Below, in pieces: positions 5,158 to 62,286 of a DNA stretch of 64,000 bases. Numbering within the stretch: position 1 is the stretch's first letter; each line of letters opens with the position of its first letter. Source of the DNA: Bacteroidia bacterium (GTDB taxonomy: Bacteria; Bacteroidota; Bacteroidia; NS11-12g; UBA955). The DNA lies in NCBI GenBank assembly GCA_044224315.1, contig JBGAKR010000005.1, positions 21,442 to 85,441 of the forward strand, read 5' to 3'. Both the position numbers and the translations under genes were made by a program. The notes below the pieces were generated by a model. It worked only from the letters and a program-made list of their open reading frames with translations, did not search any database and was not told the DNA's origin.

Positions 5158-5219
5158 TGTTACGATTTCGTTGCAAATTTAATACGATTTCGTTATATTT
5201 GCAACTGTATTCCAAAACG

Positions 5220-6431: not shown

Positions 6432-6540
6432 TTTTGTAAATTATTTACCGTACAACAGCCAAAAAATCATTTAAAGTTCAATCCTTTTTGCAGGAATTAA
6501 AGTTTAAAAAAGACTAAAACTCAACACTACTAACTCTCAA

Positions 6541-6990
6541 CTACTCCGCTGGTTTACCCTCATTTACCGAGTCTTTAACTTCGGCTTTGGTTTTTTCTGT
6601 TGGCGAATCCTGAGATGACTCTTCTTTAGTCTCAGCTGTCGGTGGAGTTATAGTTTCAGCTGTTTTTTCATCCTTCCCATCAAAAAAATCCTGCACCTTT
6701 TCAATTACGTTTTCTGCAACTTCTTCCACTTTGTCTACCACAGGCATTACATAATCATCCACCTTATCCCACACTTTTTCCGCGGTGTGCTTAATATCTT
6801 CACCTGCATTAGTAGCCATCCCTTTGGCGGTTTCGAGCAACTCGGCTGCTTTTTCTTTACCTGCTTCGGCTTTAGACTCCACCCAGTCTTCTGCCTTGTC
6901 TATTGCTACCTCTACTTTTGAAGGCGCACCTGCGGGTTGATTGGCCTTGTTTCCGCCAAATAACTTTTTGATTGAATCGAATATTCCCAT
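6541..6990 (-). CDS. Small, highly acidic K/E/D-rich hypothetical protein. Its N-terminal amphipathic motif resembles the SecA N-terminus.
   Basis: ATG at 6988-6990 (the track's first codon is GTG at 6996). Protein MGIFDSIKKLFGGNKANQPAG... followed by low-complexity acidic sequence. Divergent from secA. Confidence 0.5.
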   Translation of the reverse strand: MGIFDSIKKLFGGNKANQPAGAPSKVEVAIDKAEDWVESKAEAGKEKAAELLETAKGMATNAGEDIKHTAEKVWDKVDDYVMPVVDKVEEVAENVIEKVQDFFDGKDEKTAETITPPTAETKEESSQDSPTEKTKAEVKDSVNEGKPAE

Positions 6991-7185
6991 ATTCACAAAG
7001 TTAGGCTATTCCAAGGCTTTTGATTGTAACCAAAAGTACATTGGCTGATTATTATTTCTTTACCAACAAGCATAAATCTGCAATTCGTTCACTGCCTTTT
7101 TGTCACACAGAATCAATTTTACCTGCACTTATGGCGCGATTGCCTTTTTTGGATTGCCTTTTGCCCTAAATTCGCGAACCATTTT

Positions 7186-45512: not shown

Positions 45513-47201
45513 CTACCTGAATGAATAGTCAACACCATACACCTGAGTGAGTAGGGTTTGCGGCGCATCTAAAATTTTTGCGTTCATGGGGGGTGTGGGA
45601 GTAACCGGCGAAAATTGTTTGAGATACGCTTTAACCAATTGGTGCAGGGTTTTGCCTGTATTCTCAGTATTGGTTACCCCTTTTAAACGACATAACATAT
45701 CGGCGGGGTCGCCTTCTCTTTCGCAAGCGGTAAGCACATAAGTTTTATTTATATCCAAAGGTTCTCCCCCAATTTCAACTTTTTTTACCCGGCTGCCTTT
45801 TTCGGCAAATGCATTGAATTCAACATGCATACCATTGAATTTTACGACCCATCCGCCCAGTCTTTCTCCAGCTTCTTTTGCAAAAACATTGTTTAATTCT
45901 TTTTCAAGCCAGGCTTTAATCTGTCCACCAGTGGCATTGCCTTTTCGCACCATACTATCCACTGGCAACATATCAAATAAATAACCCTGGGTAATGGGTA
46001 TATTACCTGTAGAATCGGGTGTAGCTTTGGGCGGGCAAAACCTAAAGCCATTTGAAAGTGCAACATCTGCTTCGGGAAAAGCCCATTTTACCGCATTTAA
46101 AATCAGCGTGTCGATGGTATTTTCAACTACAAAATATCGATACAATGGCAAAGTACTGTACCCTAATATTTCATTAATTTTAGCTAAATATTTTGATTCA
46201 GAATCTTTTACCAATTTATCCATTTTACTGTCTGCTTTTAGCGATTTGGCCTCCACTTCTAGCAGTTGGTATTGGGTTTGAATCAATTTACCCTCGCGGA
46301 AAGTAAGATTCAGTTTACCAGCAAAAGAACCGAAGGCACCGGGCTCTACCACACTGGCATATTTACAAACTATAGGTACTCGCACGCGTTCGTGGGTATC
46401 CCCACCAAGAATAAAATCAACCCCTTCACATTCGGGCATATTGGCCAGCGCAATTTGTTGCGATAATCCCAAATGGGCCAAAATTATTACACTACTGCAT
46501 TTTTCCTGGTTGCGTAAAACATCTACATAATAGGCCAGATTTTCTTCGGGTTTGGTATACACAATTCCCTTGCTGTATGCCGGTGATTGCCTAATGGGCA
46601 CCCAAGGGTCGGTATAGCCCAGAAATCCGATTTTAATATTGCCAACATTCCAGATATAATAAGGTGGAAACACCAATTCACCCTTTTTATTATCGCCCAA
46701 ATCGTGGTATAAATTGGCGCAAACCTTTGGACCGTTTAGTGAGCCCATCAAGGTTTGCATTCTTTTTTTACCATAAATAACCTCCCAGTTTCCGGGTAAA
46801 TATAAATTGTAATTTAGTGCATTTAATATCGGCACATATGCTTCACCCAAAGTTTCAACAGAGAGTTCACTCCCCTGAAACATATCTCCAGTATCTACAA
46901 AAAAAGTATTTGGGTTTGATTTTTTTAATTTCGAGAATAAGGTTGCTAAGCGTGCGTATCCACCGGTTTTTCTGAACACCATTTGGTTATTTTCCCAAAA
47001 CAATTCATCGTGAGCATGAATTTGGCAGTGTACATCGGTAGTTTGTACAATGGTTAGGGTTATATCTTTATTTTTACCATTTTCTGATTCGGTTTCTATA
47101 ACAGTTTCAGTAGAGATATTATCGCCTATTAAGCTATTTGTGAGCCCCACACCTGCTGTCAGCGCTGCAATTTTTTTAATAAAATCTCTTCTGTTTTTCA
47201 T
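45513..47201 (-). CDS. TAT-secreted binuclear metallophosphoesterase of the 5'-nucleotidase/SoxB family; a candidate SoxB-like thiosulfohydrolase.
   Basis: Twin-arginine signal MKNRRDFIKKIAALTAGVG. Metallophosphatase motifs TDVHCQIHAH, FFVDTGDMFQGS, GNWE (aligning to GNHE), GGDTHE. C-terminal 5'-nucleotidase-like domain. The start ATG overlaps the cytochrome stop (ATGA). Confidence 0.65.
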   Translation of the reverse strand: MKNRRDFIKKIAALTAGVGLTNSLIGDNISTETVIETESENGKNKDITLTIVQTTDVHCQIHAHDELFWENNQMVFRKTGGYARLATLFSKLKKSNPNTFFVDTGDMFQGSELSVETLGEAYVPILNALNYNLYLPGNWEVIYGKKRMQTLMGSLNGPKVCANLYHDLGDNKKGELVFPPYYIWNVGNIKIGFLGYTDPWVPIRQSPAYSKGIVYTKPEENLAYYVDVLRNQEKCSSVIILAHLGLSQQIALANMPECEGVDFILGGDTHERVRVPIVCKYASVVEPGAFGSFAGKLNLTFREGKLIQTQYQLLEVEAKSLKADSKMDKLVKDSESKYLAKINEILGYSTLPLYRYFVVENTIDTLILNAVKWAFPEADVALSNGFRFCPPKATPDSTGNIPITQGYLFDMLPVDSMVRKGNATGGQIKAWLEKELNNVFAKEAGERLGGWVVKFNGMHVEFNAFAEKGSRVKKVEIGGEPLDINKTYVLTACEREGDPADMLCRLKGVTNTENTGKTLHQLVKAYLKQFSPVTPTPPMNAKILDAPQTLLTQVYGVDYSFR

Positions 47202-48172
47202 TTATTACGGGCAATATTTTTTTGTATTTTCATTTTATTAAACGGGCCATATTTGTGGGTATTTTCCGAAAAAGTATCGGCAAACGGTCCAAAAGGGTGA
47301 TCAACTGGTTTTTGAGATATATCGGGCCAATCATGGCTTATATCCATATCGGGGCGCGGCAAACTTTCTATATATGCCGCAATGTCCCAGGCTTGTTCTT
47401 CGGTTAATTCCGGCTTTTCAAAGCTTGCCCCATTGGGCATATTATAGCGCAAAAATCCGGCAAGGGTAGAAACCCTGTACAATCCTGCCCCTTGATTAAA
47501 GCTATGATTGCCCCACAGCGGTGGATACAGGTATTCGTTGCCTTTTTTTACCCCATCACCGGCAATTCCATGACAGCGGGTACACAGTGCATTATATTCA
47601 TTTTTACCTAATTCAGGATTGGCAGCCCTATTTAAATAATTCAGTTTTGCGATTCCTGCATTGCGCGGTTTGGATTTGGCCGGAATCCCTCTCCCAACCC
47701 ATAATACATAAGCTTCCATTGCACGCATTTCAAGGCTATTGGTGTCGAGTTTTTTCCCATTTAAGCTTCGTTCTACACAATCATTTATTCGCTTTTTTAC
47801 ACTCTCCACTGTTCCACTTCTGGGTCTGAATTTTGGGTAGTTTGCGGCCACTGCAAGGTAGTTATTTCCATAACTTTTGGTCCCTGCTTCGAGGTGACAA
47901 TTCTGGCAATTCATCCCATTGGTTTGCTGCGCAACCATTCCCTGTGGGCCCAGGTAGAAGGCAGTATGCTCAATTAGTTTACGACCATATTTCACAAGAG
48001 AATCCCGCGAAATGGTATCATTCTTTTTTGTTAAATTTAGCGGCCAATTATAATTATTTAGCAACAAACGCGGCAATAAAATGCAGGTTAAAGAGAATGT
48101 AATTATACCTATTAAAATTCGGGTTTGAATTTTAATTTTTTTCAGTTGCGTTACATTCAATTCAGCCGACAT
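47198..48172 (-). CDS. Membrane-anchored diheme c-type cytochrome, SoxA/TsdA-like.
   Basis: Two CXXCH motifs (CQNCH, CTRCH) about 108 aa apart, with a single extra Cys between them (INDCVERS). LYPPLWG motif. First ATG at 48172; the track's TTG start at 48244 would place a terminator hairpin inside the first codons. Confidence 0.65.
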   Translation of the reverse strand: MSAELNVTQLKKIKIQTRILIGIITFSLTCILLPRLLLNNYNWPLNLTKKNDTISRDSLVKYGRKLIEHTAFYLGPQGMVAQQTNGMNCQNCHLEAGTKSYGNNYLAVAANYPKFRPRSGTVESVKKRINDCVERSLNGKKLDTNSLEMRAMEAYVLWVGRGIPAKSKPRNAGIAKLNYLNRAANPELGKNEYNALCTRCHGIAGDGVKKGNEYLYPPLWGNHSFNQGAGLYRVSTLAGFLRYNMPNGASFEKPELTEEQAWDIAAYIESLPRPDMDISHDWPDISQKPVDHPFGPFADTFSENTHKYGPFNKMKIQKNIARNK

Positions 48173-48228
48173 TGAAGCAACAAATATGTAAAAAACCAGC
48201 GACAATATGGGTATAAAACATAAAAAAA

Positions 48229-48258
48229 GCCTGTTTGCGTGCAAACAGGCTTTTTTTT
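48229..48258. terminator. Intrinsic terminator (bidirectional in shape) downstream of the TonB-dependent receptor gene, separating it from the cytochrome/SoxB-like operon.
   Basis: A7, then gcctgtttgc-gtg-caaacaggc, a perfect 10-bp-per-arm hairpin, then T8. Confidence 0.6.
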
Positions 48259-48276: not shown

Positions 48277-50493
48277 TTAAAAGCTGCCTTTAAGAGATAA
48301 TACAAAATTGCGACCCGGTGCGCTTATACCGGATGCAAACACGCGGTATCGAAGGTCCAGAATGTTTTCAACAGCAAAACCCACCTGCAGGTGTTTGTTT
48401 ACAATCCATTGTCCGCGGATATTGTAGGTTTGCCATGACGGAGTGCGGCCTCGGTCGGAATATTGGGCATTATCCTCACCACTAGGGCTGTAGTCTTTGG
48501 CTTTTTTCCAACCTTGAAACAACACAAAAGCTTCAAGTTGCCATTCATTGGATACCCAGCGCAGTCCGCCACGTCCATGATCTGGCGCTACGTGGTCTAA
48601 CGGAGCCCATGCACTTTTCTCTGTTGCCTTATAACGGCCATAAGTAGTGGTATAATTAAAATCGGCAAACAGATTTTCGATTACGCGCAATTTTGCTGCA
48701 AACCAGGATCCTGTAACATATCCTCCGGCAGTATTGGCCATTTGATAAACGCGGGTCATTTTACCATCATAAAAAAATGAGTCGGCCCCATTAAAAGTAC
48801 TTGTTTGGTCAATCAACAAATTATCGATTTTGGTATAATAGGTGCCTGCCTCAAAGCGCGTATTTTCGTTGGTATAAGAAATATTTAAATCAATACTGCG
48901 GGTTTGTTCTGCTTTTAAATCTTTATTCGGAAAAATTAATTTATTGCCTGCTGCGCTTTCAAACAATTTAGTCATATCATCCACATTGGGGTTTCTAAAA
49001 CCGCTGGCCAGGCTGGCTTTCATAAACAAGCCTTTAATTCCCAGATTTTTAATCACACCCAGATTGTACACCAAATTACTATTTTTTACTGTGGCTTCCG
49101 AATAGGGTAATTTTAAAAAGTTTTGAGCCGTATAATTGGCTTTAAGGTTGTAATTGCTTGCACGGAAACCCGCTTCTACAATAAAATCATCGGGTAAAAT
49201 GGCATAATTTGCGTTTGCAAAAACAGACATGCTGCTGGTTTTTGCTCCACCATCGGCATAGCGGGTATCTGTAATGGAAGTAACAGCCCCGGTATTTACA
49301 TTGGTATTGGTTGCCGTTGATTTTACATCATTTGCAACAAACTCAGCACCTCCCTGGATTTTCAGGTTTTCGAGAAGGCGATACGCGATATCGTAGTTAA
49401 AGGCCGACATCATTACTTTATCCACCTGTGCTTTTTCGTTGGTTGCTTTAAAACTACGGGTAACGCGCCCAACTTCGGCAAATTGATTGCTGAGAATTAC
49501 GCGATGCTTAAGTCGATCTGTAGAAGGCAGGTTTAAGGCATAGCTGATAAAACGACGGTTTTGGGGTGCGTAATTCCAGGTAGCAAATCGCAGGGCACCA
49601 TTGCGCACATCGGTAAGGCGGTCATATCTGGGTACCACATCGGTAGTGCTCAATTGTACATTAAGCATATGCGTTAATTTTCCTGTTTTCAGGGCCAGTT
49701 TAGAAAACAAATCATTTTGTACATAGCCCGAACCTTTTTGAACGAAGGGATCATAATTACGCAGTTGCGTATCACGCCCATTAATTCTGTCGATGTAATA
49801 ATTACGGTAACCGAATGTATCGTTTCCTGTAAAATTGCGCTGTTGACCCATTCTCAAATCGCCAAAATCGCTGTGGGTAATATTAAATAACCAAGCCAGT
49901 TTTCGGCCCGATACTTCGAAGTTTATATTGGCAATGGAAGCATTGGCAGCACTCATATAACGGAGATTGGCATTGGCATTAGCAAAGCCAAACTTGTGTT
50001 CCCTGAATTTAGGATCTCTGGATTTAAGGTAAATAACCCCACCCAATGCATCGGAGCCATACAGGGTAGAACCGCTTCCGAAGAAAATTTCGGTTCTGTC
50101 GAGCATAAACTGGTCCAGGGTAATTAAATCCTGCAAATGCCCGGCGCGGTAAGTGGCATTGTTCATGCGCACCCCATCTACCACCATTAATACACGGCTT
50201 GCTTCAAAGCCTCTAAGTACAGGGCTTCCGCCACCCAACTGGCTTTTTTGCATAAATACATAACCGGTTTGTGCAAGTACATCGGCCATAGTTCCTTGTT
50301 GTGCCATGGCAATTTGTTTAGCATTGATGGCTTCTATCTGCCTTGTATTGTTAAGGCGTTTATCGCCCATTCTTTGGGCAGAAATTAATATTTCATTCAT
50401 GGATTCTATTTCGGCAGAATCCGGACCGGTAGATTGCCCGAATGCAGGCAATATAAGCAGGCAGGCTATACCCACCAGTAAGCTTTTTTTCAT
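48277..50493 (-). CDS. TonB-dependent outer membrane receptor.
   Basis: Signal peptide MKKSLLVGIACLLILPAFGQ. Plug domain followed by a 22-strand barrel region. C-terminal ...LSLKGSF with a terminal Phe. Confidence 0.85.
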   Translation of the reverse strand: MKKSLLVGIACLLILPAFGQSTGPDSAEIESMNEILISAQRMGDKRLNNTRQIEAINAKQIAMAQQGTMADVLAQTGYVFMQKSQLGGGSPVLRGFEASRVLMVVDGVRMNNATYRAGHLQDLITLDQFMLDRTEIFFGSGSTLYGSDALGGVIYLKSRDPKFREHKFGFANANANLRYMSAANASIANINFEVSGRKLAWLFNITHSDFGDLRMGQQRNFTGNDTFGYRNYYIDRINGRDTQLRNYDPFVQKGSGYVQNDLFSKLALKTGKLTHMLNVQLSTTDVVPRYDRLTDVRNGALRFATWNYAPQNRRFISYALNLPSTDRLKHRVILSNQFAEVGRVTRSFKATNEKAQVDKVMMSAFNYDIAYRLLENLKIQGGAEFVANDVKSTATNTNVNTGAVTSITDTRYADGGAKTSSMSVFANANYAILPDDFIVEAGFRASNYNLKANYTAQNFLKLPYSEATVKNSNLVYNLGVIKNLGIKGLFMKASLASGFRNPNVDDMTKLFESAAGNKLIFPNKDLKAEQTRSIDLNISYTNENTRFEAGTYYTKIDNLLIDQTSTFNGADSFFYDGKMTRVYQMANTAGGYVTGSWFAAKLRVIENLFADFNYTTTYGRYKATEKSAWAPLDHVAPDHGRGGLRWVSNEWQLEAFVLFQGWKKAKDYSPSGEDNAQYSDRGRTPSWQTYNIRGQWIVNKHLQVGFAVENILDLRYRVFASGISAPGRNFVLSLKGSF

Positions 50494-50556: not shown

Positions 50557-51042
50557 TTAACCCAAAAATTCTGGCGGAGGGCCTATTACCTCTCTGATTG
50601 TTTGATTCAATGCGCCAGGATTATGGCACCGCAATGGAGAATAAATATAAATATAATTTAAATGGGTAATATTATAATGCAGGGTAATCCAATCTTTAGG
50701 GATATTAAATTTACCATTTTTCTCTTTTGCATCGGAATTCGCCGCATTGCCGTCTTCCAGTATATCTTCTATTTCATCGCAAATCACTTCTGCATCCCAA
50801 CCGTTTGACACGCGGGTAACGGCAATTACATCGTAATGCTTATGTTCAATTTCAACCTCTTGTCCGGGACTTAGGTTTGAAATTTGGGAAAATGAGAAAT
50901 GGTATTTCACTGTTGATGCCGACTTTTGCGCAAACATCTGATAGCGATGTACAGAAAGTGTTGCTTGCTGCAAAAGCGGCGACAGGCCCACCACTAAAGT
51001 GAGCAAATAAGCCAAAGCTATGGTTAATTTCTGCCTCAACAA
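50557..51042 (-). CDS. Small secreted hypothetical protein of an unrecognised family; a paralog of 53366-53857.
   Basis: Signal peptide MLRQKLTIALAYLLTLVVGLSPLLQQATLSV. Shares the motifs PLLQ, W(D/E), IPxKDW, NYNI and PPExL with the other copy. Confidence 0.5.
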   Translation of the reverse strand: MLRQKLTIALAYLLTLVVGLSPLLQQATLSVHRYQMFAQKSASTVKYHFSFSQISNLSPGQEVEIEHKHYDVIAVTRVSNGWDAEVICDEIEDILEDGNAANSDAKEKNGKFNIPKDWITLHYNITHLNYIYIYSPLRCHNPGALNQTIREVIGPPPEFLG

Positions 51043-51098
51043 CTGCAGCGAAAATACAAATATTATTTTAATCTCAAGTATTTAGTTTCTTGTATTTT

Positions 51099-51132
51099 AT
51101 AAAAAAGAAAGGAGATGTTTCCACCTCCCTTC
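51099..51132 (-). terminator. Probable intrinsic terminator following the M43 protease gene.
   Basis: The minus strand reads gaagggag-(loop)-ctcctttc (imperfect 8-bp stem) followed by a T-run. Confidence 0.4.
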
Positions 51133-51148
51133 TTTCAAATTTCAAGGT

Positions 51149-53239
51149 TTATTTAACCATGAGTTTGGTAGTTGAAATAGCGCCGTTTAAACTAACCTGA
51201 AGCATATAAATTCCGGGACTTATGGCTTTACCTAAAGGCAAATTCAGAATAGCATTTGCGGTATTGGAATTATACAATTCAGCCAAATTTTTACCTGACA
51301 AATCCAGCAGATTTATTTGCACATTTTTTGCGTTACCATTTGGCAAAGTTATTTGCAACATTCCTTCGGCAGGATTGGGATAAACCCGAACCGAACCTTG
51401 CGCCATTGTATTTGTATTCAGTACCTGATTTATATTAATGTCATCCAAAAAGAAATTATTGCCCCCATCACTTTTAAACTCAAACATTACCATCATATTC
51501 TGCCTTAATGCTGCATTTATTTTAGATAGATCTACGGTCACCGACTTCCATTGCTCCGCATCGGGAGGAAAAAAATCATACACATATTTTGGGGTGTTTT
51601 TTACTGTATTGAGATTCTGTCCGGAGGCGGAATAACGGTTAATCCAGGTTTTACCACAATCTGCCGAAGTGCGCACTGTAAGTACATCTTCGGTGCCTGT
51701 AGTAACATTCTGTTTATTGCGCTGTACAAATGAATATTTAAAAGTGAGAGAAGCATCGGTGCCGGAAAGGTCGTAATGATCCGTAATTAATCTGTAATAA
51801 AAATCTGATTTGAAAGGGCTATTGGCCACCATTAAAGAACGACTGCCGTGAGTAGAAGCGCTGCTTGTAGATATCCAATTGTCGGAATTATTGGTTTCGG
51901 TATACCAATTGGCAGAAATCTCCGACTCGAAAGATTCTTTCAAAAGATTAACATTACCCGGCCAGGGATCATATACACGCACCTGTAATCGGCGTCGCAG
52001 CGTATCAGATCCATTCGCATTTGAAACAATTAAAACCGCCTCCTGCATACCTGGAGTTGAGAATGTAACCAGGGGATTTACCAGGTTTGAGGTACTTGGG
52101 TTTCCACCAGGGAAAAACCAATTGTAACTAACCGATCCGGTATACTGATAACTCATATCGGTAAATTGCACTGCACTGCCTGTACAAACGGTTTTATTTT
52201 CGGCAAAAAAGAATGCTTTGGGTTTGCAATTGCTAACCGGATTCAGCACCCCCGTTGCTAAGAGATTTTCATTGGTAATTAGCATCGACCTAAACTTATT
52301 TATGGTAGCAAGCATGCGTGATTTTTGGCCTTCACTAAACATGTTTTGGCAAGCACCATCCGAATAATCCATATAATTTTCATATTGATCTGGTAAATCA
52401 GGGTCGTCAGTTGCGCAGGTATTTATTTCAGAGGGGAGACATACACCATAACTAGGTCCGCTAACGGGTGGAGTATCGTCCACTTTATCATCATCTCCAC
52501 ATCCTCCTTGAAAAGTATGAAATAAGCCCAGCCAGTGGCCGGTTTCATGGGTAAGTACACGGCCGTAATTAGGCCTTAGACCTGCTGGGTTAGCGGCAGT
52601 ACCAATGGAGCCTACCATGTCGTGACGAATAATTACACCATCCGTGCGGTACAAACCCGTCCAGGGAAACTGCGCGTATCCTAAAATGGTGCCAGCTACA
52701 CCCGATTGTGATGCAATATTTTTTACCACCCAGATATTGAAATAATGATCTGCTGGCCATACGCTGAGTAATTTAATGGCATCGTCACCGTTTTCAGTCA
52801 GTGGAGTTTCATAACGCACTATACCCTCTGTGCAGCGGCCAAAATTATCTTTTGTTGCCAACTTAAATTCGATATTACAATCGGCTGCTATGCCTTTAAA
52901 AACATCGCGTGTTTTATTGCTATCGGCATTTTGTCTGCGGTAATCTATATTCAACAATCGAATCGCATCCTCACATTGGGCTTTCGAAATATTTTCGGGT
53001 CCTCCATTGTGAAATATATGAAATACCACCGGAATAATAATAGTAGCGGCTCTGGAGGAAAGGCCTGTTGCGGTTTTTACAGTGGCATTAAAATTGGCTT
53101 CCCTATTTAATATTGTAGGGTCAGCAATTATTTGTTCTTTGTATTTTAAATCCGTTCCGCAAGGTTCGGTTTTTTTATTCTGTGCGCAAAGCACAAAGCT
53201 GAATACAACAGCTGCTATCAGTGTTAATTGTTTTTTCAT
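51149..53239 (-). CDS. Secreted M43-family (pappalysin/cytophagalysin-like) zinc metalloprotease with a T9SS C-terminal sorting domain.
   Basis: Signal peptide MKKQLTLIAAVVFSFVLCAQN. Zinc-binding HETGHWLGLFHTF plus the downstream GGCGDDD. CTD VRVYPNPAEGMLQITL...GIYMLQVSLNGAISTTKLMVK. Confidence 0.8.
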   Translation of the reverse strand: MKKQLTLIAAVVFSFVLCAQNKKTEPCGTDLKYKEQIIADPTILNREANFNATVKTATGLSSRAATIIIPVVFHIFHNGGPENISKAQCEDAIRLLNIDYRRQNADSNKTRDVFKGIAADCNIEFKLATKDNFGRCTEGIVRYETPLTENGDDAIKLLSVWPADHYFNIWVVKNIASQSGVAGTILGYAQFPWTGLYRTDGVIIRHDMVGSIGTAANPAGLRPNYGRVLTHETGHWLGLFHTFQGGCGDDDKVDDTPPVSGPSYGVCLPSEINTCATDDPDLPDQYENYMDYSDGACQNMFSEGQKSRMLATINKFRSMLITNENLLATGVLNPVSNCKPKAFFFAENKTVCTGSAVQFTDMSYQYTGSVSYNWFFPGGNPSTSNLVNPLVTFSTPGMQEAVLIVSNANGSDTLRRRLQVRVYDPWPGNVNLLKESFESEISANWYTETNNSDNWISTSSASTHGSRSLMVANSPFKSDFYYRLITDHYDLSGTDASLTFKYSFVQRNKQNVTTGTEDVLTVRTSADCGKTWINRYSASGQNLNTVKNTPKYVYDFFPPDAEQWKSVTVDLSKINAALRQNMMVMFEFKSDGGNNFFLDDININQVLNTNTMAQGSVRVYPNPAEGMLQITLPNGNAKNVQINLLDLSGKNLAELYNSNTANAILNLPLGKAISPGIYMLQVSLNGAISTTKLMVK

Positions 53240-53365
53240 TTTGGATTTAATTTAGGTTTAATAAGGCATTGTGGGTGAATTCAAAGTAAGCTTTAGAGAA
53301 ACTTTGGAATATCACAACAATGTAGAAACAAAGACAAGTGCATCAGGGCATTGTCAACTTTTCAA

Positions 53366-53857
53366 TCAACTTAAATTTTCCGGTGGAGAATGCGGAGTTG
53401 CTGAAAAACCCGCTGTCATATTAATGTTATATTCAGGGTAAAAAAAACAGCATGAATTGCAATTTATGTTATAATTAAATGGAATATGGTTGCACCAATC
53501 TTTGGCGAATGGAATTTTGTTTTTAACCCAATCATTTGAAGAATTCGCAGCCATAGATTTCAATATCCCATACTCAATTTTATCATTAATAGCTGCTATT
53601 TCCCATTTATCACCGCGGAGAGATGCTGATACGATATCAAATTCAGTATTTTGCCAAAAGATTTCATCCCCTGCTTCAACTCTGACAATTTCTGAAACGG
53701 GAATTATCAGTTTCGCCAGATTTTTTTGATCCGAAATGCGGGCAATTTGTTGCTTAACGCAATATTTACGTGCCAGCACAGCTGTTACCTGCAGCAATGG
53801 CAATGCCGCGAATAAAAGCGCCAAGGACAAAGTAAATACTTTTAGATTTCGCAACAC
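53366..53857 (-). CDS. Small secreted hypothetical protein, a paralog of 50557-51042; C-terminal Cys cluster CNSCC.
   Basis: Signal peptide MLRNLKVFTLSLALLFAALPLLQVTAVLA. Shared motifs KIPFAKDW, NYNI, PPENL. Confidence 0.5.
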   Translation of the reverse strand: MLRNLKVFTLSLALLFAALPLLQVTAVLARKYCVKQQIARISDQKNLAKLIIPVSEIVRVEAGDEIFWQNTEFDIVSASLRGDKWEIAAINDKIEYGILKSMAANSSNDWVKNKIPFAKDWCNHIPFNYNINCNSCCFFYPEYNINMTAGFSATPHSPPENLS

Positions 53858-53918
53858 GGCAAATATATGGCAAGCGGCAAAATCTAAACCCGGACGTAAT
53901 TACTTTTACTTTCCTATG

Positions 53919-54833
53919 TCAAAACTGATAGCAACTATTCTTGCCCGGAGCCAGTCCTCTTTCCTTTTTGCCATTGGTGCGAGGGGCACCCTTGCCACCT
54001 AAAATCAAATTGTAATTGATACACAGAAAAAAGAAGTTATCGGTATAAGTAGGTTTACCCCTAATGGCTCCCGGGGCGCTAAAACCCGGAATTTCACCTA
54101 AACTTCGGTCGCTTAAATCCACAGCTGTTTGCCCGTTACTTGCCAACAGTTGGGTTTTATCTACATAATTGGTAGAAACATCATCAATATAATCTGTAAA
54201 CGTTTTGCGCGAGCTTAATTCAAAGCTCCAATATCCATGCGGGCGCGATAGAAAATTAATACCAAAACCAAATGGAATGGCAAAGGAAGTAAGTTTATAT
54301 GGCGATTTACCCGGCATAAAAAACTGCCCTTCGGTTCCCAGGGGTTGTAAACGCACAACTTGCCCGTTATAATGGGTGCGGGGGTCGAAATGAAAGTATT
54401 CTATACCCGCAAACATGTATAATTTATTAAACTTTTGTTTATCGGGTAAAAATTTAAATTCCATTATTAGATTTCCTCCCTGGATAGGTGAAAAGAAATC
54501 GAGGTTTCGATTGCGACGTGCCGGATTGGTTGTATACTTATCGCTGGCAGACAAGCGGCCATAATACCCTCCGGCACGCAAGGCAAAAGATTTACCAAAA
54601 TTAAAGCGCATTCCAAGCCCTCCCATATATCGGGTTCCTTGTAAATTCAGATCGGCAATAGATGGGGTGCCGTTGGTAAAACTTCCACCTAAGTCGCCCA
54701 AAAAATGGGTAGACCCGGCACTAAAAACAAGATTAATTTGTGCCTTTGCGGAATGAGAAGCAAGTGCAATAAACCCAATGAAAATGCATTGGTTGAACCT
54801 GCAAAAATACCTGCCAGTATTTGTAATTTGCAT
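53919..54833 (-). CDS. Outer-membrane beta-barrel family protein, paralog A, 304 aa.
   Basis: Signal peptide. Long blocks identical to paralog B (RLQPLGTEGQFFMPG, KTFTDYIDDVST, VDKTQLLASNGQTAVDLSDRSLGEIP). C-terminal Phe. Confidence 0.6.
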   Translation of the reverse strand: MQITNTGRYFCRFNQCIFIGFIALASHSAKAQINLVFSAGSTHFLGDLGGSFTNGTPSIADLNLQGTRYMGGLGMRFNFGKSFALRAGGYYGRLSASDKYTTNPARRNRNLDFFSPIQGGNLIMEFKFLPDKQKFNKLYMFAGIEYFHFDPRTHYNGQVVRLQPLGTEGQFFMPGKSPYKLTSFAIPFGFGINFLSRPHGYWSFELSSRKTFTDYIDDVSTNYVDKTQLLASNGQTAVDLSDRSLGEIPGFSAPGAIRGKPTYTDNFFFLCINYNLILGGKGAPRTNGKKERGLAPGKNSCYQF

Positions 54834-54890: not shown

Positions 54891-55802
54891 TTAAAAAATA
54901 TCATTGCAGCTTCCACCCCTGCTATGTTTAACCTTGCGGTGTCCGTTTCTGTGATTAAAACTGGCAGAAGAGCCTTTGCGCGCACCTAGGGTATAAGCAT
55001 AGGTTACGGATAAAAAGAAAAAGTTGTCGTTGCTGGAAGAATGCCCGCGAATGGTACCCGGATCGCTGAAATAAGGGATTTCGCCCAGGCTTCGGTCGCT
55101 GAGATCTACAGCTGTTTGTCCGTTACTGGCCAGTAATTGGGTTTTGTCTACAAATGTGGTAGAAACATCATCGATATAATCGGTAAATGTTTTACGGCAT
55201 ACCAATTCAGTGCTTAAACTGCCTCTGTCTCCTTTGTAAAAAGTATAGCCAATGCCAAAAGGGATAGCCAGGGAAGTAAGCTTATATGGACTGCGGCCCG
55301 GCATAAAAAACTGGCCTTCGGTGCCCAAGGGTTGCAATCGCACAGTTTGCCCGTTGTATTTGGTTCGCGGATCGAATTTAAAATACTCTATGCCACCAAA
55401 AACATACCAGTTACCCGGCTTGCCCTGGCTGGGTAATTTAAATTCGAGCATGGCGCTGCCACCTATGATGGGGGAAAAGAAATTAAGATTTCGGTTCTTC
55501 CGTTCGGGATTGCTGGTGTATTTATCATTGGCTGCCACCCTTGCATAATACCCATTCAAACGCCCGGATACATATTGGCTAAAGGGGAAACGTAAACCTG
55601 CGCCCAGCATATATCGGGTACTTTGCAAATCAACATCCTGAATATCGTGTGTGCCGATAACAGGCTTGCCGCCTAAATCACCCAAAAAGCTGGATGATCC
55701 GCCAGTAGCCAGGATTTGAATCTGGCCTGCCGCGGGCGCAACAGCACTGAAGCCTGCCAGCAACAATGCCAATAAGTGTTTTTGAGTGAATTCGGTTTTC
55801 AT
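54891..55802 (-). CDS. Outer-membrane beta-barrel family protein, paralog B, 304 aa.
   Basis: ATG at 55802 (MKTEFTQKHLLALLLAGFSAVAPAAGQ). The track ORF extends to 56291 through non-coding-looking sequence that overlaps the thiolase gene. C-terminal Phe. Confidence 0.6.
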   Translation of the reverse strand: MKTEFTQKHLLALLLAGFSAVAPAAGQIQILATGGSSSFLGDLGGKPVIGTHDIQDVDLQSTRYMLGAGLRFPFSQYVSGRLNGYYARVAANDKYTSNPERKNRNLNFFSPIIGGSAMLEFKLPSQGKPGNWYVFGGIEYFKFDPRTKYNGQTVRLQPLGTEGQFFMPGRSPYKLTSLAIPFGIGYTFYKGDRGSLSTELVCRKTFTDYIDDVSTTFVDKTQLLASNGQTAVDLSDRSLGEIPYFSDPGTIRGHSSSNDNFFFLSVTYAYTLGARKGSSASFNHRNGHRKVKHSRGGSCNDIF

Positions 55803-55932
55803 ATTTTTCTGCCTCCATGCTTTTTGACAGGCAAATGTTGAATTGGTTGCACCGATGCCTGTAATTTTTATAACGCTATTATTGGTTGCAAAATTTTCTA
55901 CGCTGCGGTTTTTAAGGTTAATTTGCACCTGC

Positions 55933-57132
55933 ATGAATGAGGTATTTGTAATTGATGTATTGCGTACTCCGGTTGGAAAATTCGGCGGAAGCCTTGCCAG
56001 TGTGCGCCCCGACGATATGGCCGCCCACGTAATTCGCAGTATTATGGAGCGCAATGGCAACATCGATTTTACCGAAACCGATGATGTAATTTTTGGTGCT
56101 GCTAACCAGGCAGGAGAAGACAACCGAAATGTTGCACGCATGGCATTGTTGCTAGCCGGATTGCCGGTTACTGTACCCGGATATACGGTAAACCGTTTGT
56201 GTGCAAGCGGGTTGCAGAGCATAATGAATGGATATATGGCCATTCGCAGCGGACAAGCGGGATTGATTTTGGCCGGTGGCACAGAAAGCATGACCCGTGC
56301 ACCTTTTGTAATGGCAAAAGCCGAGCAGGGATTTCAACGGAATGTAGAAATATACGATACCACCATTGGATGGCGTTTTACTAATCCCAAACTGGCCGAA
56401 ATGTACCATCCATACAGTATGGGCGAAACTGCAGAAAATGTAGCTGTTAAATATAATGTAAGCCGGGAGGATCAGGATCAGTTTGCCTTTGAAACCCAAC
56501 AAAATTGGGCCAATGCGCAGGCTGCCGGAAAATTCAAAAATGAAATAACCCCTGTATTATTGCCCCAGAAAAAAGGCGACCCTAAAATATTTGATACCGA
56601 TGAGCATCCGCGCCTAAGCACCGTGGAAGTGTTGGCCGGCCTAAAACCTGCATTTAAAAAAGATGGCACAGTAACTGCCGGAAACTCCAGTGGAATAAAC
56701 GATGGTGCTGCCTGCATGATTCTGGCTTCAGAAGAAACCGTAATTAAATTTAAATTAAAACCCATGGCACGCATTGCAGGGATTGGTGTGGCCGGTGTAC
56801 CACCCGAAATTATGGGAATTGGACCTATCCCAGCCTCACTAAAAGCTATGCACCACGCGGGTATAACAGCAGCCGACCTGGATTTGGCCGAATTAAATGA
56901 AGCATTTGCGGTACAAGTTTTAGCCAGCATGCGCGAATTAAAAATAGCGCGCGAAATTGTGAATGTAAATGGTGGCAGCATTGCCATCGGACATCCATTA
57001 GGTGCATCCGGAACCCGAATTTCTGCTACACTTTTACATGAAATGCAAAAACGCCAAACCGCCCGCTATGGCCTCGCAACCATGTGCATTGGTGTGGGAC
57101 AAGGCAGCGCTATAGTGTACGAAAAACTATAA
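55933..57132 (+). CDS. Acetyl-CoA C-acyltransferase / acetoacetyl-CoA thiolase.
   Basis: ATG at 55933 (MNEVFVIDVLRTPVGKFGG). Active-site Cys region VNRLCASGLQS. C-terminal GHPLGASG and CIGVGQG motifs. Confidence 0.9.
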   Translation: MNEVFVIDVLRTPVGKFGGSLASVRPDDMAAHVIRSIMERNGNIDFTETDDVIFGAANQAGEDNRNVARMALLLAGLPVTVPGYTVNRLCASGLQSIMNGYMAIRSGQAGLILAGGTESMTRAPFVMAKAEQGFQRNVEIYDTTIGWRFTNPKLAEMYHPYSMGETAENVAVKYNVSREDQDQFAFETQQNWANAQAAGKFKNEITPVLLPQKKGDPKIFDTDEHPRLSTVEVLAGLKPAFKKDGTVTAGNSSGINDGAACMILASEETVIKFKLKPMARIAGIGVAGVPPEIMGIGPIPASLKAMHHAGITAADLDLAELNEAFAVQVLASMRELKIAREIVNVNGGSIAIGHPLGASGTRISATLLHEMQKRQTARYGLATMCIGVGQGSAIVYEKL

Positions 57133-57912: not shown

Positions 57913-60900
57913 TTATTCAAATTTACCCAGGAATCTATCTACCTGCCGCTGTGTAGCCATTCTTACATAAAAATCATCTACACCAATTTTATCGGCAGTT
58001 GCAGTGATTATCTCATTTAACTTAGGATCGCTGGAAAACATGTATACCACATTTTTTTGAAGGTTGATATACAACCAATCGTTATTGGCAAATTCGAGGT
58101 ATATATACATGTTTTCTCCGCTGCGCTTATGCTCCATCAGCATGGTTACATCAATGGTGCGGTTCACCGGAGAACCTGCAAAGGATGCCATAGATACCTG
58201 GTCATTGCAATACATACCTTTCAAGCGGCTATCCCAGCGGAAAGTTGCATCACTTAAAATAATTTTATATTCAGCTTCATCTTTACCAGAAATCTGGCCT
58301 GTTTTTTCAATATTTTTTATAATGGTTCTCGCGGTTTTATCATCCGCAACCATCTCTCCTATTGCCTTTTTAAAGAAGTCGTTGTTTAGCGAAACCATAC
58401 CTGCAGGGCCCAGCTTTTCTTTAATTTTTGCTACAACATCTTTATGCATGGGGAAGTCGAGCATCATAGCCAAATTGAAATTAAATGTGCTGTCTTTTTC
58501 GAGCAAATCTGCTGTACCCGCGTTTTTAAATTTCACATGCTGGGTTTCCAAACCAAAATCCAGAGGGCCTTCGGCATGGATGGTGTGGTTAGATTCGTTG
58601 AGCTGCATGTAACTGCCTTTGAGGGCGCCATTCAATAGCAAATCTCTATTTCCGGCAAAGAAACTTTGTTTGGTGTGATCGTAATACAAGATACCTGTGT
58701 CGTTGGTTACATCGGGGTCGCTTGTCCGTCGTTTCCAACCGTAAAACATGGGGTAAATGTGGCTTGAGTCGTTGGCCATAAATAAACCCACATATTGCGG
58801 ACGATTGTCTTTATCGCGCGGATTACTCATGTTGATAATCACATTTTTGGGATCTACACGGTCGTTAAATCTGATCCAAGCGGCGGGTACTATATTGGTA
58901 AAGGTATGCAAGGGTTTTACATACCCTTTAAATTGGAGATATTTTTCAGTACTCAGCACTTGTGCATAGCCTTTGTAACCAATTTTGGTATCGATGAGGA
59001 AGCCGGCAGTGTCACCAATTTTACCCCAACCTTCCACATGTTTTTCGCGGTTTACAATAATACTATCGAGTTTAAATTCTTCGCGTTTGCCATCTTTAAT
59101 TACATATTGGTATCGCCCGTTTCCGGTCATTCTCAATCTTCCGTAAATTTTAGCCTGGGTATTATAAATATCGTGAAATTTATCTATGCGATTGGCCATA
59201 ATTTTGGCAGAATCCACCACATCCATATTCGCGTTTTCACGCACGGTTACTTTGCCATCTTTCAGGAAAACCCTAGAGTCGGCAATATCTATATACGGTA
59301 TTTGGGAAATTTTAAGTGTATAATCATTGAGGTTATACAAGCCCGATTTACCCTCAAACCTCAGACTATCCTGGGTAGGATTTGTACTTAAGAAAAAGGG
59401 CACACTGCCTGCCATAGCGGGGCCGGGTTTTGCCTCAATGGTTTTCTTATCCATGTTCCATTTATAATCATTGAGGTTGGTAACATACATATTAAACGGA
59501 AACTTGGTGAGTGCATCCTTTTCGTTGGTAGTAAAGGCACCCATGCGGGTTGTAAAATCCATAGTACCCTTAATATTTCCGGTTTCAAATGCAATTTTTG
59601 TACTGTCTGATGCAAATATTTTAAGTGAGGCTTTGTCGGCAGAAGCTTTCATGGGCCCCAGGGTCATATCATTAGAGGCAAATCGAGCTTGATCCCAGGC
59701 AAGGGTACCATCACCTGCCAGGCGGCTGGGAGATTGGGTAAGATTGCCATAAAAATCATATCCCATTTTAAATACTTTAATTGCAGATGGTCCTTGTTTT
59801 ACCTGAAATTTATCTTGGTAAGGACTCCACTCTACATCAGGGCTGGCCGCATATACCTGCGGATATGTAGCTCCTTGTGGTATTTCGTAACTATCTGCAG
59901 TGCCCACAGCCTTGTCGGGCAATAACAATATTTTTTTGAAGTTGGTGGTACTTCCGTTGTAATCGATTTTACCACTTTGGCCATAAAATCCTTGTTCGCT
60001 AAGGTTCATCACCATTTCGCCATGCCCTTTGCCGCGGTACATAGGATAACCGCCCGGGGGGGTGGGTTTAATAAACCCTAAGGAATAATCTTTCTGAATG
60101 GAAACATGGTATTTAAATTCAGGGAAAATTCCGTCGCTTAAAAATGTGCCATCAAATTGCAAACCCTCAATGGTAAAATTATCCAAACTATCAATGGTAA
60201 ACGGATCTACCAGGAATTTGAATTTATCGCTTTTGTAAGCACCATTATGAATAAAGGGTTTATCATATAAAACCTCCGACCCTTTGCTCGATTTAAAAAT
60301 CGGATATTCGGGATAATTTACTACCCCGGATTTGTTATTGGGTTTATCAATATATAGAGTACCGTAAATATTTCTGAGTACAGATTTTACCGGAATAATC
60401 TGGCGCCCGGTTGAGTCGGGATAATACAAACGCATGGAATCGATATTGGAATAATCGATCATAAAATTGGCATAATTAAATTCGAATTTTTTACCAAAAA
60501 AATCAAACCTACCTGCGCGAATCATACCTCCGAAAGCCACGCGCCTGTTCTTTTTCAAAATAATCTGTTGGTCGGTAGGCACTACAATTACGTTTTGTGA
60601 ATCGGAGAAAAAGAATTTCAAAACCCCTTCCACTGTCATTTCATTGCTCAATAAATTAAGGGTAGCATTGCTGCGTTTGGCAATCAAAGACGAGAAACGG
60701 ATTACATCGTAATCGCGGTGACCCTGGTGCGCAATTACATAATTGAACAATTTGGGTTTAATTAACACACTATCCTGATCCTGGTAATAATTTACAAAAC
60801 CACCGTCATGCAAATCGATAAATGAGGTTACCAAATATTGTGATTGGGTTTTCATAAATGCAGCATAATCTTTAACTGCAAATTTCAATTGTTTCGTAGG

Positions 60901-62286
60901 TCGCAAAAATCGGCTGTAGTACGACATTACTGCTTCCAGGGGATTATAAGCCAACGGACCTTGCAAACGGGCATAAATTATTTCGCGGAAAAAATCTTCC
61001 GATGCAATTTTGGCTTCCTGGTCATTATTTACATTATCAAAATCTATAAAGGGTTCGTCAATTTTCCAGCGCAACTGCTGCACATCCAAATCCACCCTGT
61101 GGTATTCATCTGTAAACGGTACACGCATCAAACCTTTTTCGCCCCGATTTACCACCAGTTTATTTTCTTTAAAAATAAAATTCACCGATACTTTAGGATG
61201 GTAAATATTGGCACTGTCTAAATAAAGCACGAATGAAGCTTCCTGGCTGGCTGCAACTCCGTTTGATATTTTAAATGCTCGACTTTTTAATGTTGCTTTC
61301 TTTTTGCCTTTATAATAAATATTAATTTCGGTTTCGTCGCCGGTAGCGGTTTGAGTATTGATCTCGCTTCCCACAATCGAAAATCCACCTTTAAATGTAG
61401 CATTCTCGCCCACAATGCCTTTAATTTCAAGGGTATTGGCGAATGATTTAAATTTGGGAAAATCTGATTTTAAAATAGAAGGACTGTCGTTTGCAAATGA
61501 CAATCGGTCTTCAAATTTACCCGGAATTTTACTTCCGAAATATTTGGTAAAAGTGAGTTGTGCTGTGTCTATGGAGTAGTTGGCTTGTTCGAGGTGAAGC
61601 TTATAATTTTTAAATTCAACCTCTACTTTACCTTCTTTAATTACCCTGTCAAAATTTGCTTTTCCGCTGTTTCCGATCCACACTTTTTCTGCAGGGATGT
61701 AATAGCCCGATGTTTGGTAAATCTGCATCCTATCAAGCGGGCCTTGACAGGTTAAGGTAAGTGCAGAAAACTTAACAATTATCTGTCCTTTGCTATAGAG
61801 GATATCGAAATTTGAATTATCGGCCACCCATTTTTTTCCTTCATCTGAAAAAATTGCATTCTCTGCAAACAATTTCGAGGTCATTTCAAGAAATGAGAGG
61901 TAATCTGTATTGCTTTCACCCAGCAATGATTCGGTTACTTTTTGCCATTGCTGCAGGTTTTTATCCGGTAATTTTTTTTCCAGAAACGCGGCCAATGATT
62001 TCAGCATCAATCCGAAATAGGGTTGCACGGTCATTTTTTCGAGCAGCATCCCGTTACAAATCTGTATTACAGACTTTTGTTGTATGGGCGAGAACTTACC
62101 CAGGTTCCAGTTTTGTTTAAAGATTTTCATGTCTTCAACCAGTTTTTTATCATTGGCCGAATTGAGAAAAGTTTCAAACTCCGTAATAAAAACAGCGGGG
62201 TCTGTACTAAAACTTTTAACCTGTGAGAATGCTTTCCCGCAGAACAGGAATGCAATAAAGATTGCTATGAATTTAAAAGGTCGCAT
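57913..62286 (-). CDS. Very large (1457 aa) secreted or envelope hypothetical protein; possibly AsmA/TamB-like, family not recognised.
   Basis: Single uninterrupted ORF. N-terminal signal/anchor MRPFKFIAIFIAFLFCGKAFSQ. The rest appears beta-rich with no recognisable catalytic motif. Confidence 0.55.
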   Translation of the reverse strand: MRPFKFIAIFIAFLFCGKAFSQVKSFSTDPAVFITEFETFLNSANDKKLVEDMKIFKQNWNLGKFSPIQQKSVIQICNGMLLEKMTVQPYFGLMLKSLAAFLEKKLPDKNLQQWQKVTESLLGESNTDYLSFLEMTSKLFAENAIFSDEGKKWVADNSNFDILYSKGQIIVKFSALTLTCQGPLDRMQIYQTSGYYIPAEKVWIGNSGKANFDRVIKEGKVEVEFKNYKLHLEQANYSIDTAQLTFTKYFGSKIPGKFEDRLSFANDSPSILKSDFPKFKSFANTLEIKGIVGENATFKGGFSIVGSEINTQTATGDETEINIYYKGKKKATLKSRAFKISNGVAASQEASFVLYLDSANIYHPKVSVNFIFKENKLVVNRGEKGLMRVPFTDEYHRVDLDVQQLRWKIDEPFIDFDNVNNDQEAKIASEDFFREIIYARLQGPLAYNPLEAVMSYYSRFLRPTKQLKFAVKDYAAFMKTQSQYLVTSFIDLHDGGFVNYYQDQDSVLIKPKLFNYVIAHQGHRDYDVIRFSSLIAKRSNATLNLLSNEMTVEGVLKFFFSDSQNVIVVPTDQQIILKKNRRVAFGGMIRAGRFDFFGKKFEFNYANFMIDYSNIDSMRLYYPDSTGRQIIPVKSVLRNIYGTLYIDKPNNKSGVVNYPEYPIFKSSKGSEVLYDKPFIHNGAYKSDKFKFLVDPFTIDSLDNFTIEGLQFDGTFLSDGIFPEFKYHVSIQKDYSLGFIKPTPPGGYPMYRGKGHGEMVMNLSEQGFYGQSGKIDYNGSTTNFKKILLLPDKAVGTADSYEIPQGATYPQVYAASPDVEWSPYQDKFQVKQGPSAIKVFKMGYDFYGNLTQSPSRLAGDGTLAWDQARFASNDMTLGPMKASADKASLKIFASDSTKIAFETGNIKGTMDFTTRMGAFTTNEKDALTKFPFNMYVTNLNDYKWNMDKKTIEAKPGPAMAGSVPFFLSTNPTQDSLRFEGKSGLYNLNDYTLKISQIPYIDIADSRVFLKDGKVTVRENANMDVVDSAKIMANRIDKFHDIYNTQAKIYGRLRMTGNGRYQYVIKDGKREEFKLDSIIVNREKHVEGWGKIGDTAGFLIDTKIGYKGYAQVLSTEKYLQFKGYVKPLHTFTNIVPAAWIRFNDRVDPKNVIINMSNPRDKDNRPQYVGLFMANDSSHIYPMFYGWKRRTSDPDVTNDTGILYYDHTKQSFFAGNRDLLLNGALKGSYMQLNESNHTIHAEGPLDFGLETQHVKFKNAGTADLLEKDSTFNFNLAMMLDFPMHKDVVAKIKEKLGPAGMVSLNNDFFKKAIGEMVADDKTARTIIKNIEKTGQISGKDEAEYKIILSDATFRWDSRLKGMYCNDQVSMASFAGSPVNRTIDVTMLMEHKRSGENMYIYLEFANNDWLYINLQKNVVYMFSSDPKLNEIITATADKIGVDDFYVRMATQRQVDRFLGKFE

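Follow-up and report, generated by a model that had tools for sequence, protein, structure and literature searches.

What are the two small genes that bracket the gene of a secreted zinc metalloprotease in a genome of the Bacteroidia lineage NS11-12g, and to which of their neighbours do they belong? Both lie in the window analyzed in this study, a stretch of 64,000 nucleotides from contig JBGAKR010000005.1 (assembly GCA_044224315.1, positions 21,442 to 85,441). A first-pass annotation had described their products as small secreted proteins of an unrecognised family and had suggested that they serve the protease as a dedicated partner, i.e. as a propeptide-like chaperone, an inhibitor or immunity protein, or an adaptor of the type IX secretion system (T9SS). 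Here, we report that the two proteins, named A and B in the following, are members of a conserved family, termed X, whose role is probably tied to one TonB-dependent receptor (TBDR) encoded next to A and not to the M43 protease. The features that carry this argument are listed in the order of transcription:

53366..53857, minus strand: copy B of family X, 163 amino acids, GTG start (profile match E = 5.8e-42)
51149..53239, minus strand: M43 zinc metalloprotease, 696 amino acids (PF05572, PKD_4, PF18962, TIGR04183)
51103..51136, minus strand: hairpin with a 15-bp stem and a 4-nt loop, followed by a U-run (dG -20.9 kcal/mol)
50557..51042, minus strand: copy A of family X, 161 amino acids, TTG start (profile match E = 7.5e-36)
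48277..50493, minus strand: TBDR, 738 amino acids, Plug domain and 22-strand barrel (Pfam Plug and TonB_dep_Rec_b-barrel)
48222..48257, minus strand: strong terminator-like hairpin of 16 pairs with a T-run, directly 3' of the TBDR stop codon (terminator scan)

A and B as members of an undescribed family

The open reading frames (ORFs) of A and B immediately flank the M43 gene on the same strand, at the coordinates first assigned to them, and the homology claimed for the two proteins holds up statistically. BLASTP aligned them over 86 amino acids with 27% identity (E = 9e-9), and phmmer scored the pair at 28.2 bits, whereas none of 2000 shuffled versions of B scored above 6.3 bits. A tblastn search of the 64-kb window with B returned the A locus (129 amino acids, E = 2.7e-8) and no other match below E = 0.09. 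Furthermore, the family profile aligns end to end with both proteins, from the hydrophobic N-terminus through the C-terminal PPPE.

Word-indexed searches with A, B and a 73-sequence profile retrieved only 2, 2 and 15 proteins, respectively; those with A and B yielded, besides near-identical proteins, just two relatives, which come from metagenome assemblies and show the same order of genes. The family itself emerged when a profile of four sequences was used for an exhaustive HMMER search, which gave 72 cluster representatives (50% identity) at E < 1e-3; one is an obvious false positive, and the others are 120-198 amino acids long. Alignments were built from 73 sequences and later from a set of 134 non-redundant sequences, with a typical length of 150-180 amino acids (median 169). 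X was found only in Bacteroidota, and all named sources are metagenome-assembled genomes of this phylum in which the protein is annotated as “hypothetical protein”.

Members of the family share a hydrophobic N-terminal segment with a conserved proline, followed by [HR][KR], and a core consisting of G-D-E-[IV], five residues and [YF]-D-[IV], then D-x2-E-x2-L and finally D-W. A PP(P)[E/D] motif is located 2-5 residues from the C-terminal end. Four acidic residues (E, D and the pair in D-x2-E) and the C-terminal PP are invariant in the 134 sequences, corresponding to E62, D71, D89, E92 and PPP 155-157 in A and to E65, D74, D92, E95 and PP 158-159 in B. The motifs picked out at first reading are real and most of them are family-wide (P-L-L-Q of the N-terminal helix, G-[DQ]-E-[IV], Y/F-D-[IV], D-x2-E, D-W, PP(P)E); the CNSCC cluster, in turn, is not kept even in the nearest relative of B (P0002, with SISQR at this place).

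Structure prediction with AlphaFold2 reached a mean predicted local distance difference test score (pLDDT) of 81.7 with the 73-sequence alignment and only 47 with the four-sequence alignment. The model comprises one continuous helix (residues 2-41), four strands (47-91), a second helix (93-107) and an unstructured, poorly ordered tail of about 55 amino acids, and these parts, in the order of hydrophobic helix, small beta domain and tail, are those of B. Many members have small residues 5-7 positions past the conserved proline, and the hydrophobic segment itself is conserved in sequence. Of the original description as a secreted protein with a signal peptide, targeting to the cell envelope is supported; secretion is less clear, as the conserved helix would suit a membrane anchor no less than a cleaved signal peptide.

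The family also proved to be as unfamiliar as first stated, and X belongs to no curated family tested. A and B gave no match better than E = 0.04 against Pfam, NCBIfam and PADLOC, and none of the 73 members reached a curated threshold or showed a consistent match in Pfam, NCBIfam, PHROGs or PADLOC. The X profile matched no sequence of the PDB, and Foldseek searches of the PDB returned only generic small barrels at E ≥ 0.018 (XkdH, MCE domains, an insert of FKBP). The sole recurrent weak match was to the phage head-tail joining protein FII (PF05354), seen in 10 of the 73 members with a best E-value of 6.6e-5, and the best Foldseek match points in the same direction (3f3b, XkdH, E = 0.018, 50 columns). 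Phage head-tail joining proteins (lambda gpFII, PF05354/NF049848; XkdH of PBSX) indeed resemble X in their small beta-barrel core with a “G-D-x-[IV] ... [YF]-x-[IV]” hairpin, but they have neither the transmembrane helix nor the tail motif, and X is not found in a phage context and is blank in PHROGs, indicating a generic likeness of fold. A defence-system or phage origin, considered as well, is unsupported by the PHROGs and PADLOC scans. In our reading, both paralogues are functional, and the Bacteroidota family they come from is undescribed.

Linkage of X to a TonB-dependent receptor

In order to identify the conserved neighbour of X, we examined the gene context of eight distant homologues (P0084, P0051, P0005, P0010, P0013, P0075, P0085, P0076). 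In all eight, a TBDR gene (about 735 amino acids, Plug and barrel) follows immediately downstream on the same strand, and no peptidase is present; two of the eight contexts are on contigs below 1.5 kb, where the truncated ORF was matched to the N-terminus of the window TBDR with 64-67% identity. In the window, A lies on the upstream side of the TBDR gene at a spacing of 63 nt.

A census from the side of the receptor gave a corresponding picture. It covered 80 genome loci with full-length TBDR orthologues (37-47% identity) from Chitinophagales, Flavobacteriales, Cytophagales, Sphingobacteriales and Saprospiraceae, in which six-frame ORFs were scanned with profiles; 78 of these loci possess upstream DNA. 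X was found directly upstream and on the same strand in 54/78, typically with a gap of tens of base pairs, and this arrangement spans Chitinophagales, Flavobacteriales, Cytophagales and Sphingobacteriales. When neighbouring ORFs were clustered by BLAST, X was present in 48 loci and the runner-up, a gene resembling extracytoplasmic function (ECF) sigma factors, in 15, leaving X as the only widely conserved neighbour.

The closest single-copy relative of the window, locus L008, contains one X gene and neither an M43 gene nor the DUF6089 genes found in the window. Its receptor is 65% identical to that of the window, and its gene order (pseudouridine synthase, thiolase | X → TBDR → ... SoxA/TsdA) is syntenic with it. 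The A-TBDR pair of the window is the canonical pair of the family. In one Flavobacterium-type locus (L039), X (5100-5648) is located directly upstream of a TBDR (5674-8151) with an N-terminal extension ahead of the plug, which by eye looks like a carboxypeptidase-regulatory-like (NTE) domain and is without counterpart in the window.

TBDRs are the main nutrient gates of Bacteroidota and, to our knowledge, little has been learned about their helper proteins apart from the SusC/D and HmuY/R paradigms. X, an unnamed conserved family that precedes about 70% of the receptors in one widespread TBDR orthogroup, is a candidate new uptake accessory, and its carriers include the culturable Cnuella takakiae (L046) and Chitinophagaceae bacterium IBVUCB1 (L027). 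X is a real and fairly widespread family; on present evidence, it does not represent a categorically new kind of system.

Type of the receptor and its possible ligand

The window TBDR scores above the cut-offs of both generic domains (Plug, PF07715, 64.3 bits; barrel, PF00593, 75.4 bits). Its best NCBIfam models by far are the haem/haemoglobin receptors TIGR01785 and TIGR01786, both sub-threshold (168.6 versus a cut-off of 316.85 and 165 versus 323.75, respectively), and the orthologues in L004 and L008 reach 191-206 bits on these models, which is likewise below threshold. A second hint comes from the neighbourhood of the receptor in other genomes. In Chitinophagaceae- and Sphingobacteriales-type loci, a gene for a membrane-anchored CXXCH protein of about 165 amino acids with a Haem_bd domain (PF14376) precedes X in the order Haem_bd→X→TBDR (L004 at 9466-9954, L005, L012, L013, L015, L062, L064, L067, L069, L087, L093). 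In L086, Haem_bd (5357-5794) precedes a TBDR without X. A homologue of Haem_bd was searched for in the window and none was found, and a full-text literature search for PF14376 returned no paper on its function. Altogether, the TBDR is possibly of the haem/haemoglobin-receptor-like type, with haem or a related compound as its ligand.

Small proteins encoded beside haem-type TBDRs and co-expressed with them have been described before, namely HmuY/HfpY with HmuR/HfpR and, in Riemerella, RhuA/RhuH with RhuR (bioRxiv 10.1101/2022.04.04.486927; PMC11967795). X resembles the HmuY/HfpY/RhuA type in being a small protein encoded beside a haem-type Bacteroidota TBDR, but the latter occur as lipoproteins on the surface or as secreted haem binders, with histidine ligands, and their genes are downstream of the receptor gene or divergent from it. 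X, in contrast, is predicted to be helix-anchored, is encoded upstream, has invariant carboxylates instead of His/Tyr and shows no match to them in sequence or fold. A further haem-type TBDR, bfpR of Flavobacterium psychrophilum, is reported to be co-transcribed with an upstream hypothetical gene, THC0290_1678 (bioRxiv 10.1101/2022.04.04.486927). Membership of THC0290_1678 in X was considered and is not established; the plug motif of BfpR, as it stands in the supplement of that source after optical character recognition, differs from the GGSPVxRGFEASRVLxxVDGVRMNN of the orthogroup.

Proposed role and topology of X

We propose that X is anchored in the inner membrane via its N-terminal helix, with the beta domain and the flexible tail most likely facing the periplasm. 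There, it could act as an accessory of the TBDR import pathway, for example by docking to the receptor or by receiving the ligand from it, and this ligand might be haem or another compound of a similar kind, containing a metal or a porphyrin. The N-terminal flank of the helix is basic and without acidic residues, which favours an N-in/C-out orientation, and the genes encoded alongside X are for periplasmic or outer-membrane proteins. We consider a membrane-anchored TBDR accessory the likely identity of X and have much less confidence in any specific mechanism.

Several observations weigh against this proposal or parts of it. In 24/78 orthologous TBDR loci, X is missing upstream, and an iterated X profile recovered no further loci among the 78; because of these loci, many lineages would have to do without X or encode it at another place. 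The receptors that have X and those that lack it form no separate clades and differ in no discriminating residue. X also heads M43 units, and its role may not be receptor-specific. Regarding topology, the C-terminal flank of the helix is basic as well (+1.3, compared to about +1.4 for the N-terminal flank without the amino group and +2.4 with it), leaving the positive-inside rule ambiguous, and the likeness of the X beta domain to that of YajC, which is cytoplasmic (see below), would place the domain in the cytoplasm. Regarding haem, the TIGR01785 score is about half of the cut-off, making this a weak assignment, and no riboswitch or regulator box was found. Haem-type TBDRs carry FRAP and NPNL boxes flanking a conserved histidine in loop L7 (bioRxiv 10.1101/2022.04.04.486927), and the consensus of the orthogroup (GFRNPNVDD...(20 aa)...NPDLKPE) shows FRAP-like and NPNL-like boxes without a histidine between them.

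The resemblance to YajC leads to a different reading of X, as a bitopic inner-membrane protein with a cytoplasmic beta domain that helps to export or insert the large protein encoded right behind it, or to control its expression. This protein is usually the TBDR and in some loci the T9SS protease, which would account for a copy of X at the head of each unit. YajC (PF02699, part of SecDF-YajC) is about 90-120 amino acids long, has an N-out/C-in topology and is encoded with secDF/tgt. The two proteins share the order of their parts (N-terminal transmembrane helix, basic juxtamembrane helix, small beta barrel), and the C-terminal flank of the X helix is rich in K/R/H. An hhalign comparison of the 73-sequence X profile with E. 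coli YajC, a query verified by Pfam (4.7e-26, 90.9 bits), gave a probability of 75% and E = 2.5e-5 over 42 columns (GDE[VI]...V..v..nG...a.ND..E). In addition, X precedes two kinds of cargo, the protease and the receptor, in the window and likewise in L030. However, the Pfam YajC model is matched by only 1/73 members (E = 0.033; gathering score 28.2 bits), compared to the ten that match phage FII, so the shared motif appears to be a generic small-barrel signature. Moreover, the X profile recovers no YajC chain from the PDB sequences at E ≤ 10, X is 50-70 amino acids longer, with a tail that ends in the invariant PPP[E/D], and its N-terminal flank is basic rather than acidic or neutral as in YajC, suggesting the opposite topology. 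A general Sec helper would also hardly track one TBDR orthogroup so closely, and X is tied to this orthogroup and not to secDF. Since YajC itself weakly resembles the barrels of MreC and MlaD, and X matches FII more often, we regard the likeness as an architectural analogy, not as membership, and a YajC-like role of X, the main alternative, as unlikely.

A related and quite unlikely possibility is that X constitutes an unrecognised inner-membrane coupling or biogenesis factor, i.e. a TonB- or ExbD-like adaptor or a YajC-like helper, required by the exported protein encoded behind it. If true, this would explain why X heads both TBDR and T9SS-protease units in the window and in L030, and in the adaptor version the invariant carboxylates and the PPP[E/D] tail would engage the receptor. 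In terms of its presumed topology, X resembles TonB and ExbD/TolR by its single N-terminal transmembrane helix, small periplasmic domain, flexible proline-containing segment and link to TBDRs. It differs from them in that it shows no TonB_C or ExbD signal in Pfam or NCBIfam, carries neither the transmembrane Asp of ExbD nor the S-H-L-S of TonB, and has only three such prolines, located at the very end.

Transcription units and evolution of the two copies

The two hairpins listed above structure the locus. The one at 51136-51103 begins 13 nt past the M43 stop codon (z = -4.9; none of 200 shuffles folds as well) and looks like an intrinsic terminator dividing B and M43 from A and the TBDR, and the one at 48222-48257 closes the latter unit. 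No terminator-like feature was detected in the spacer between B and M43. The window is most simply read as a parallel pair of bicistronic units, B→M43 and A→TBDR, each led by a copy of X.

The sequences ahead of X genes are enriched in TAnnTTTG, the -7 promoter motif of Bacteroidetes, which is also present just before B. It is a general motif and the only one enriched; no operator motif, Fur-box-like or other, was found ahead of X, and no riboswitch, e.g. for cobalamin, either. Neither window copy has an ATG near its 5' end. The L-R following the start is conserved in A and B, yet the Arg codons differ (AGG versus CGA). An exact match to the -7 motif (TATATTTG) ends 2 nt before the GTG of B (upstream stretches 51043-51075 and 53858-53880). 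This leaves two options, a nearly leaderless mRNA or a translation that actually begins at the downstream TTG chosen by NCBI (P0001).

It is conceivable that the promoter and 5' region are what matters here and that X, as the first ORF, was copied along with its promoter when the M43 gene came under this control, with a minor or no specific function of its own. This would fit with the position of X, which always leads its own unit behind the enriched -7 motif, with the non-ATG starts very near this motif, with the loss of X from about 30% of the TBDR orthologue loci and with an evolutionary rate several-fold above that of the neighbouring genes. By contrast, the four acidic residues and the terminal PP that are invariant in 134 sequences from several orders, the ratios of non-synonymous to synonymous substitutions (dN/dS) well below 1 in both copies and the confident AlphaFold2 fold of the helix and beta domain argue for selection on the structure of the X protein itself, and we therefore rate a mere passenger as very unlikely.

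The dN/dS values are 0.18 for A (against the orthologue in L002) and 0.34 for B (against the orthologue in L001), compared to 0.02-0.06 for the neighbouring M43, TBDR, DUF6089 and thiolase genes of these genome pairs. Identity to the respective orthologues amounts to 85% for A and 62% for B, which is the faster-evolving copy. Both copies are under purifying selection, yet evolve faster than their neighbours. A tree of X places A and B together with the single-copy members from L008 and L009 in a common clade, at large distances and with weak resolution, and apart from the M43-linked X of other lineages, which form no clade of their own. Because A and B share this clade with single-copy relatives, the tree indicates that the B→M43 unit arose by a lineage-specific duplication of X, in connection with the acquisition of the protease gene.

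The M43 protease as an occasional guest of the locus

The identification of the protease itself is borne out. The 696-aa gene product contains a Peptidase_M43 domain (PF05572, 68.6 bits, cut-off 23) with the zinc site HETGHWLGLFH (HExxHxxGxxH), a PKD_4 domain (28 bits, cut-off 27), a signal peptide and a weak MAM/Reelin-B-like region. By its C-terminal domain, it is a type-A cargo of the T9SS (PF18962, Por_Secre_tail, 40.3 bits, cut-off 27; TIGR04183, 43 bits, cut-off 23).

In order to determine how often X and the protease occur together, we analyzed 80 loci from metagenomes in which the M43 orthologue is full-length and has the same domain architecture (31-50% identity), including up to 5 kb on each side. 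X adjoins M43 in only two of them, L141 (X→M43) and L154 (X→M43→TBDR), and in none of the other 78, among which L096, carrying the nearest relative of the window protease (50% identity), is free of X on both flanks. A TBDR was likewise present in 2/80 (L154 and L174, the latter TBDR→M43). Seen from the receptor, M43 occurs in 3/80 TBDR loci, and 51 of the 54 X-carrying TBDR loci are without it. Since X adjoins so few M43 loci, it is no general partner of the M43 orthogroup.

The three receptor-anchored cases are L037 (X→M43→TBDR), L034 (M43→X→TBDR) and L030, where the units stand back to back (M43←X | X→TBDR). The M43 orthologues of L030 and L037 show the full architecture seen in the window; the L034 contig starts inside the gene, of which the C-terminal end and the T9SS tail are visible. 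M43 lies immediately behind a copy of X in the window, L030, L037, L141 and L154, and the exception among loci with a visible upstream side is L174. The receptors of the M43-carrying loci are only 39-50% identical to one another. In a neighbour-joining tree of M43, L030, L154, L037 and L174 cluster together, and the window (with L096) and L141 are placed elsewhere. As proteases near X fall into at least three branches, the association has either three or more separate origins or an old one followed by frequent loss. A rough estimate, assuming about 3 M43 genes per genome of about 3500 genes, predicts about 0.1 adjacencies by chance among about 56 X genes, and three were observed; given these assumed numbers, M43 would be a facultative but non-random guest of the X-TBDR locus.

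The TBDRs of L037 and L049 are 89% identical and their X proteins closely related; the 2.1-kb M43 gene is present in L037 only (L049: X→TBDR with a 333-bp spacer). The difference between the two is a recent clean insertion or deletion between the X and the receptor gene. In other Bacteroidota, the M43/PKD/T9SS-tail orthogroup often occurs in tandem arrays of 2-4 paralogues, independent of X and the TBDR (L103, L108, L121, L123, L125, L134, L142, L158, L169 and others).

Within the proposed role of X in receptor-linked import, the repeated recruitment of a T9SS-secreted M43 protease behind X would provide co-expression with uptake, and the protease could free the ligand from extracellular proteins. 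The repeated arrival of M43 at the X locus hints at such a protease-assisted release, as proposed for haem in other Bacteroidota; for Riemerella, a similar idea has been raised for the release of haem from haemoglobin (PMC11967795).

The gene contexts consequently favour the receptor as the partner of X, and the annotation as a protease partner or inhibitor, a call by guilt of association, is corrected here. The co-occurrence of X homologues with M43 proteases that the first-pass annotation had asked for is largely missing. Serralysin inhibitors such as AprI/Inh (MEROPS I38) illustrate what a dedicated inhibitor looks like: they are small periplasmic proteins encoded beside a secreted zinc protease and co-occur tightly with it. 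X, in contrast, is missing from most M43 loci and present at TBDR loci without a protease. A and B do bracket M43 in the window, X does precede proteases from at least three branches, and the faster evolution of B could reflect a new role, but a dedicated partnership is the least probable explanation in view of the protease-less X-TBDR loci including L008, the single X in the X→M43→TBDR strings of L037 and L154, the scattered position of M43-linked copies in the X tree and the lack of similarity of X to known protease inhibitors or propeptides. What remains of this idea is the minority linkage, which may reflect a looser functional or regulatory tie.

Further genes around the locus

On the minus strand, the genes follow each other in the order of two DUF6089/PorG-like genes, B, M43, A, TBDR, a SoxA/TsdA-like cytochrome gene and a SoxB-like gene. 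The DUF6089 genes encode outer-membrane beta-barrel paralogues in tandem upstream of B (53919-54833 and 54891-c.55800, both minus strand, 63% identical), one of which matches the NCBIfam model of the T9SS protein PorG below threshold (76 versus 130 bits). The long ORF called at 54891-56291 contains a spurious N-terminal extension, which overlaps the start of a thiolase gene on the opposite strand. As components of an X system, the DUF6089/PorG-like genes were rejected: they are restricted to the lineage of the window (window, L001, L176) and absent from L008 and all other X, TBDR and M43 loci.

Directly downstream of the TBDR gene, a SoxA/TsdA-like dihaem cytochrome c gene (47198-48244, minus strand) overlaps a SoxB-like gene by 4 bp, the pair spanning 45513-48244. 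The SoxB-like thiosulfohydrolase/5'-nucleotidase carries a twin-arginine-like leader (MKNRRDFIKK) and scores 244 bits on TIGR04486, below the cut-off of 550. In L008 and L176, genes for sulfur transporters and a Lactamase_B+Rhodanese gene are found near the Sox-like genes. This has the look of a small gene cluster for sulfur oxidation. Finally, the window encodes a signal-peptide protein of 1457 amino acids (57913-62286, minus strand) with no Pfam match on record, an uncharacterised large envelope protein of Bacteroidota, the counterpart of which adjoins tpiA in L008 (1510 amino acids, no Pfam match) and in L176.

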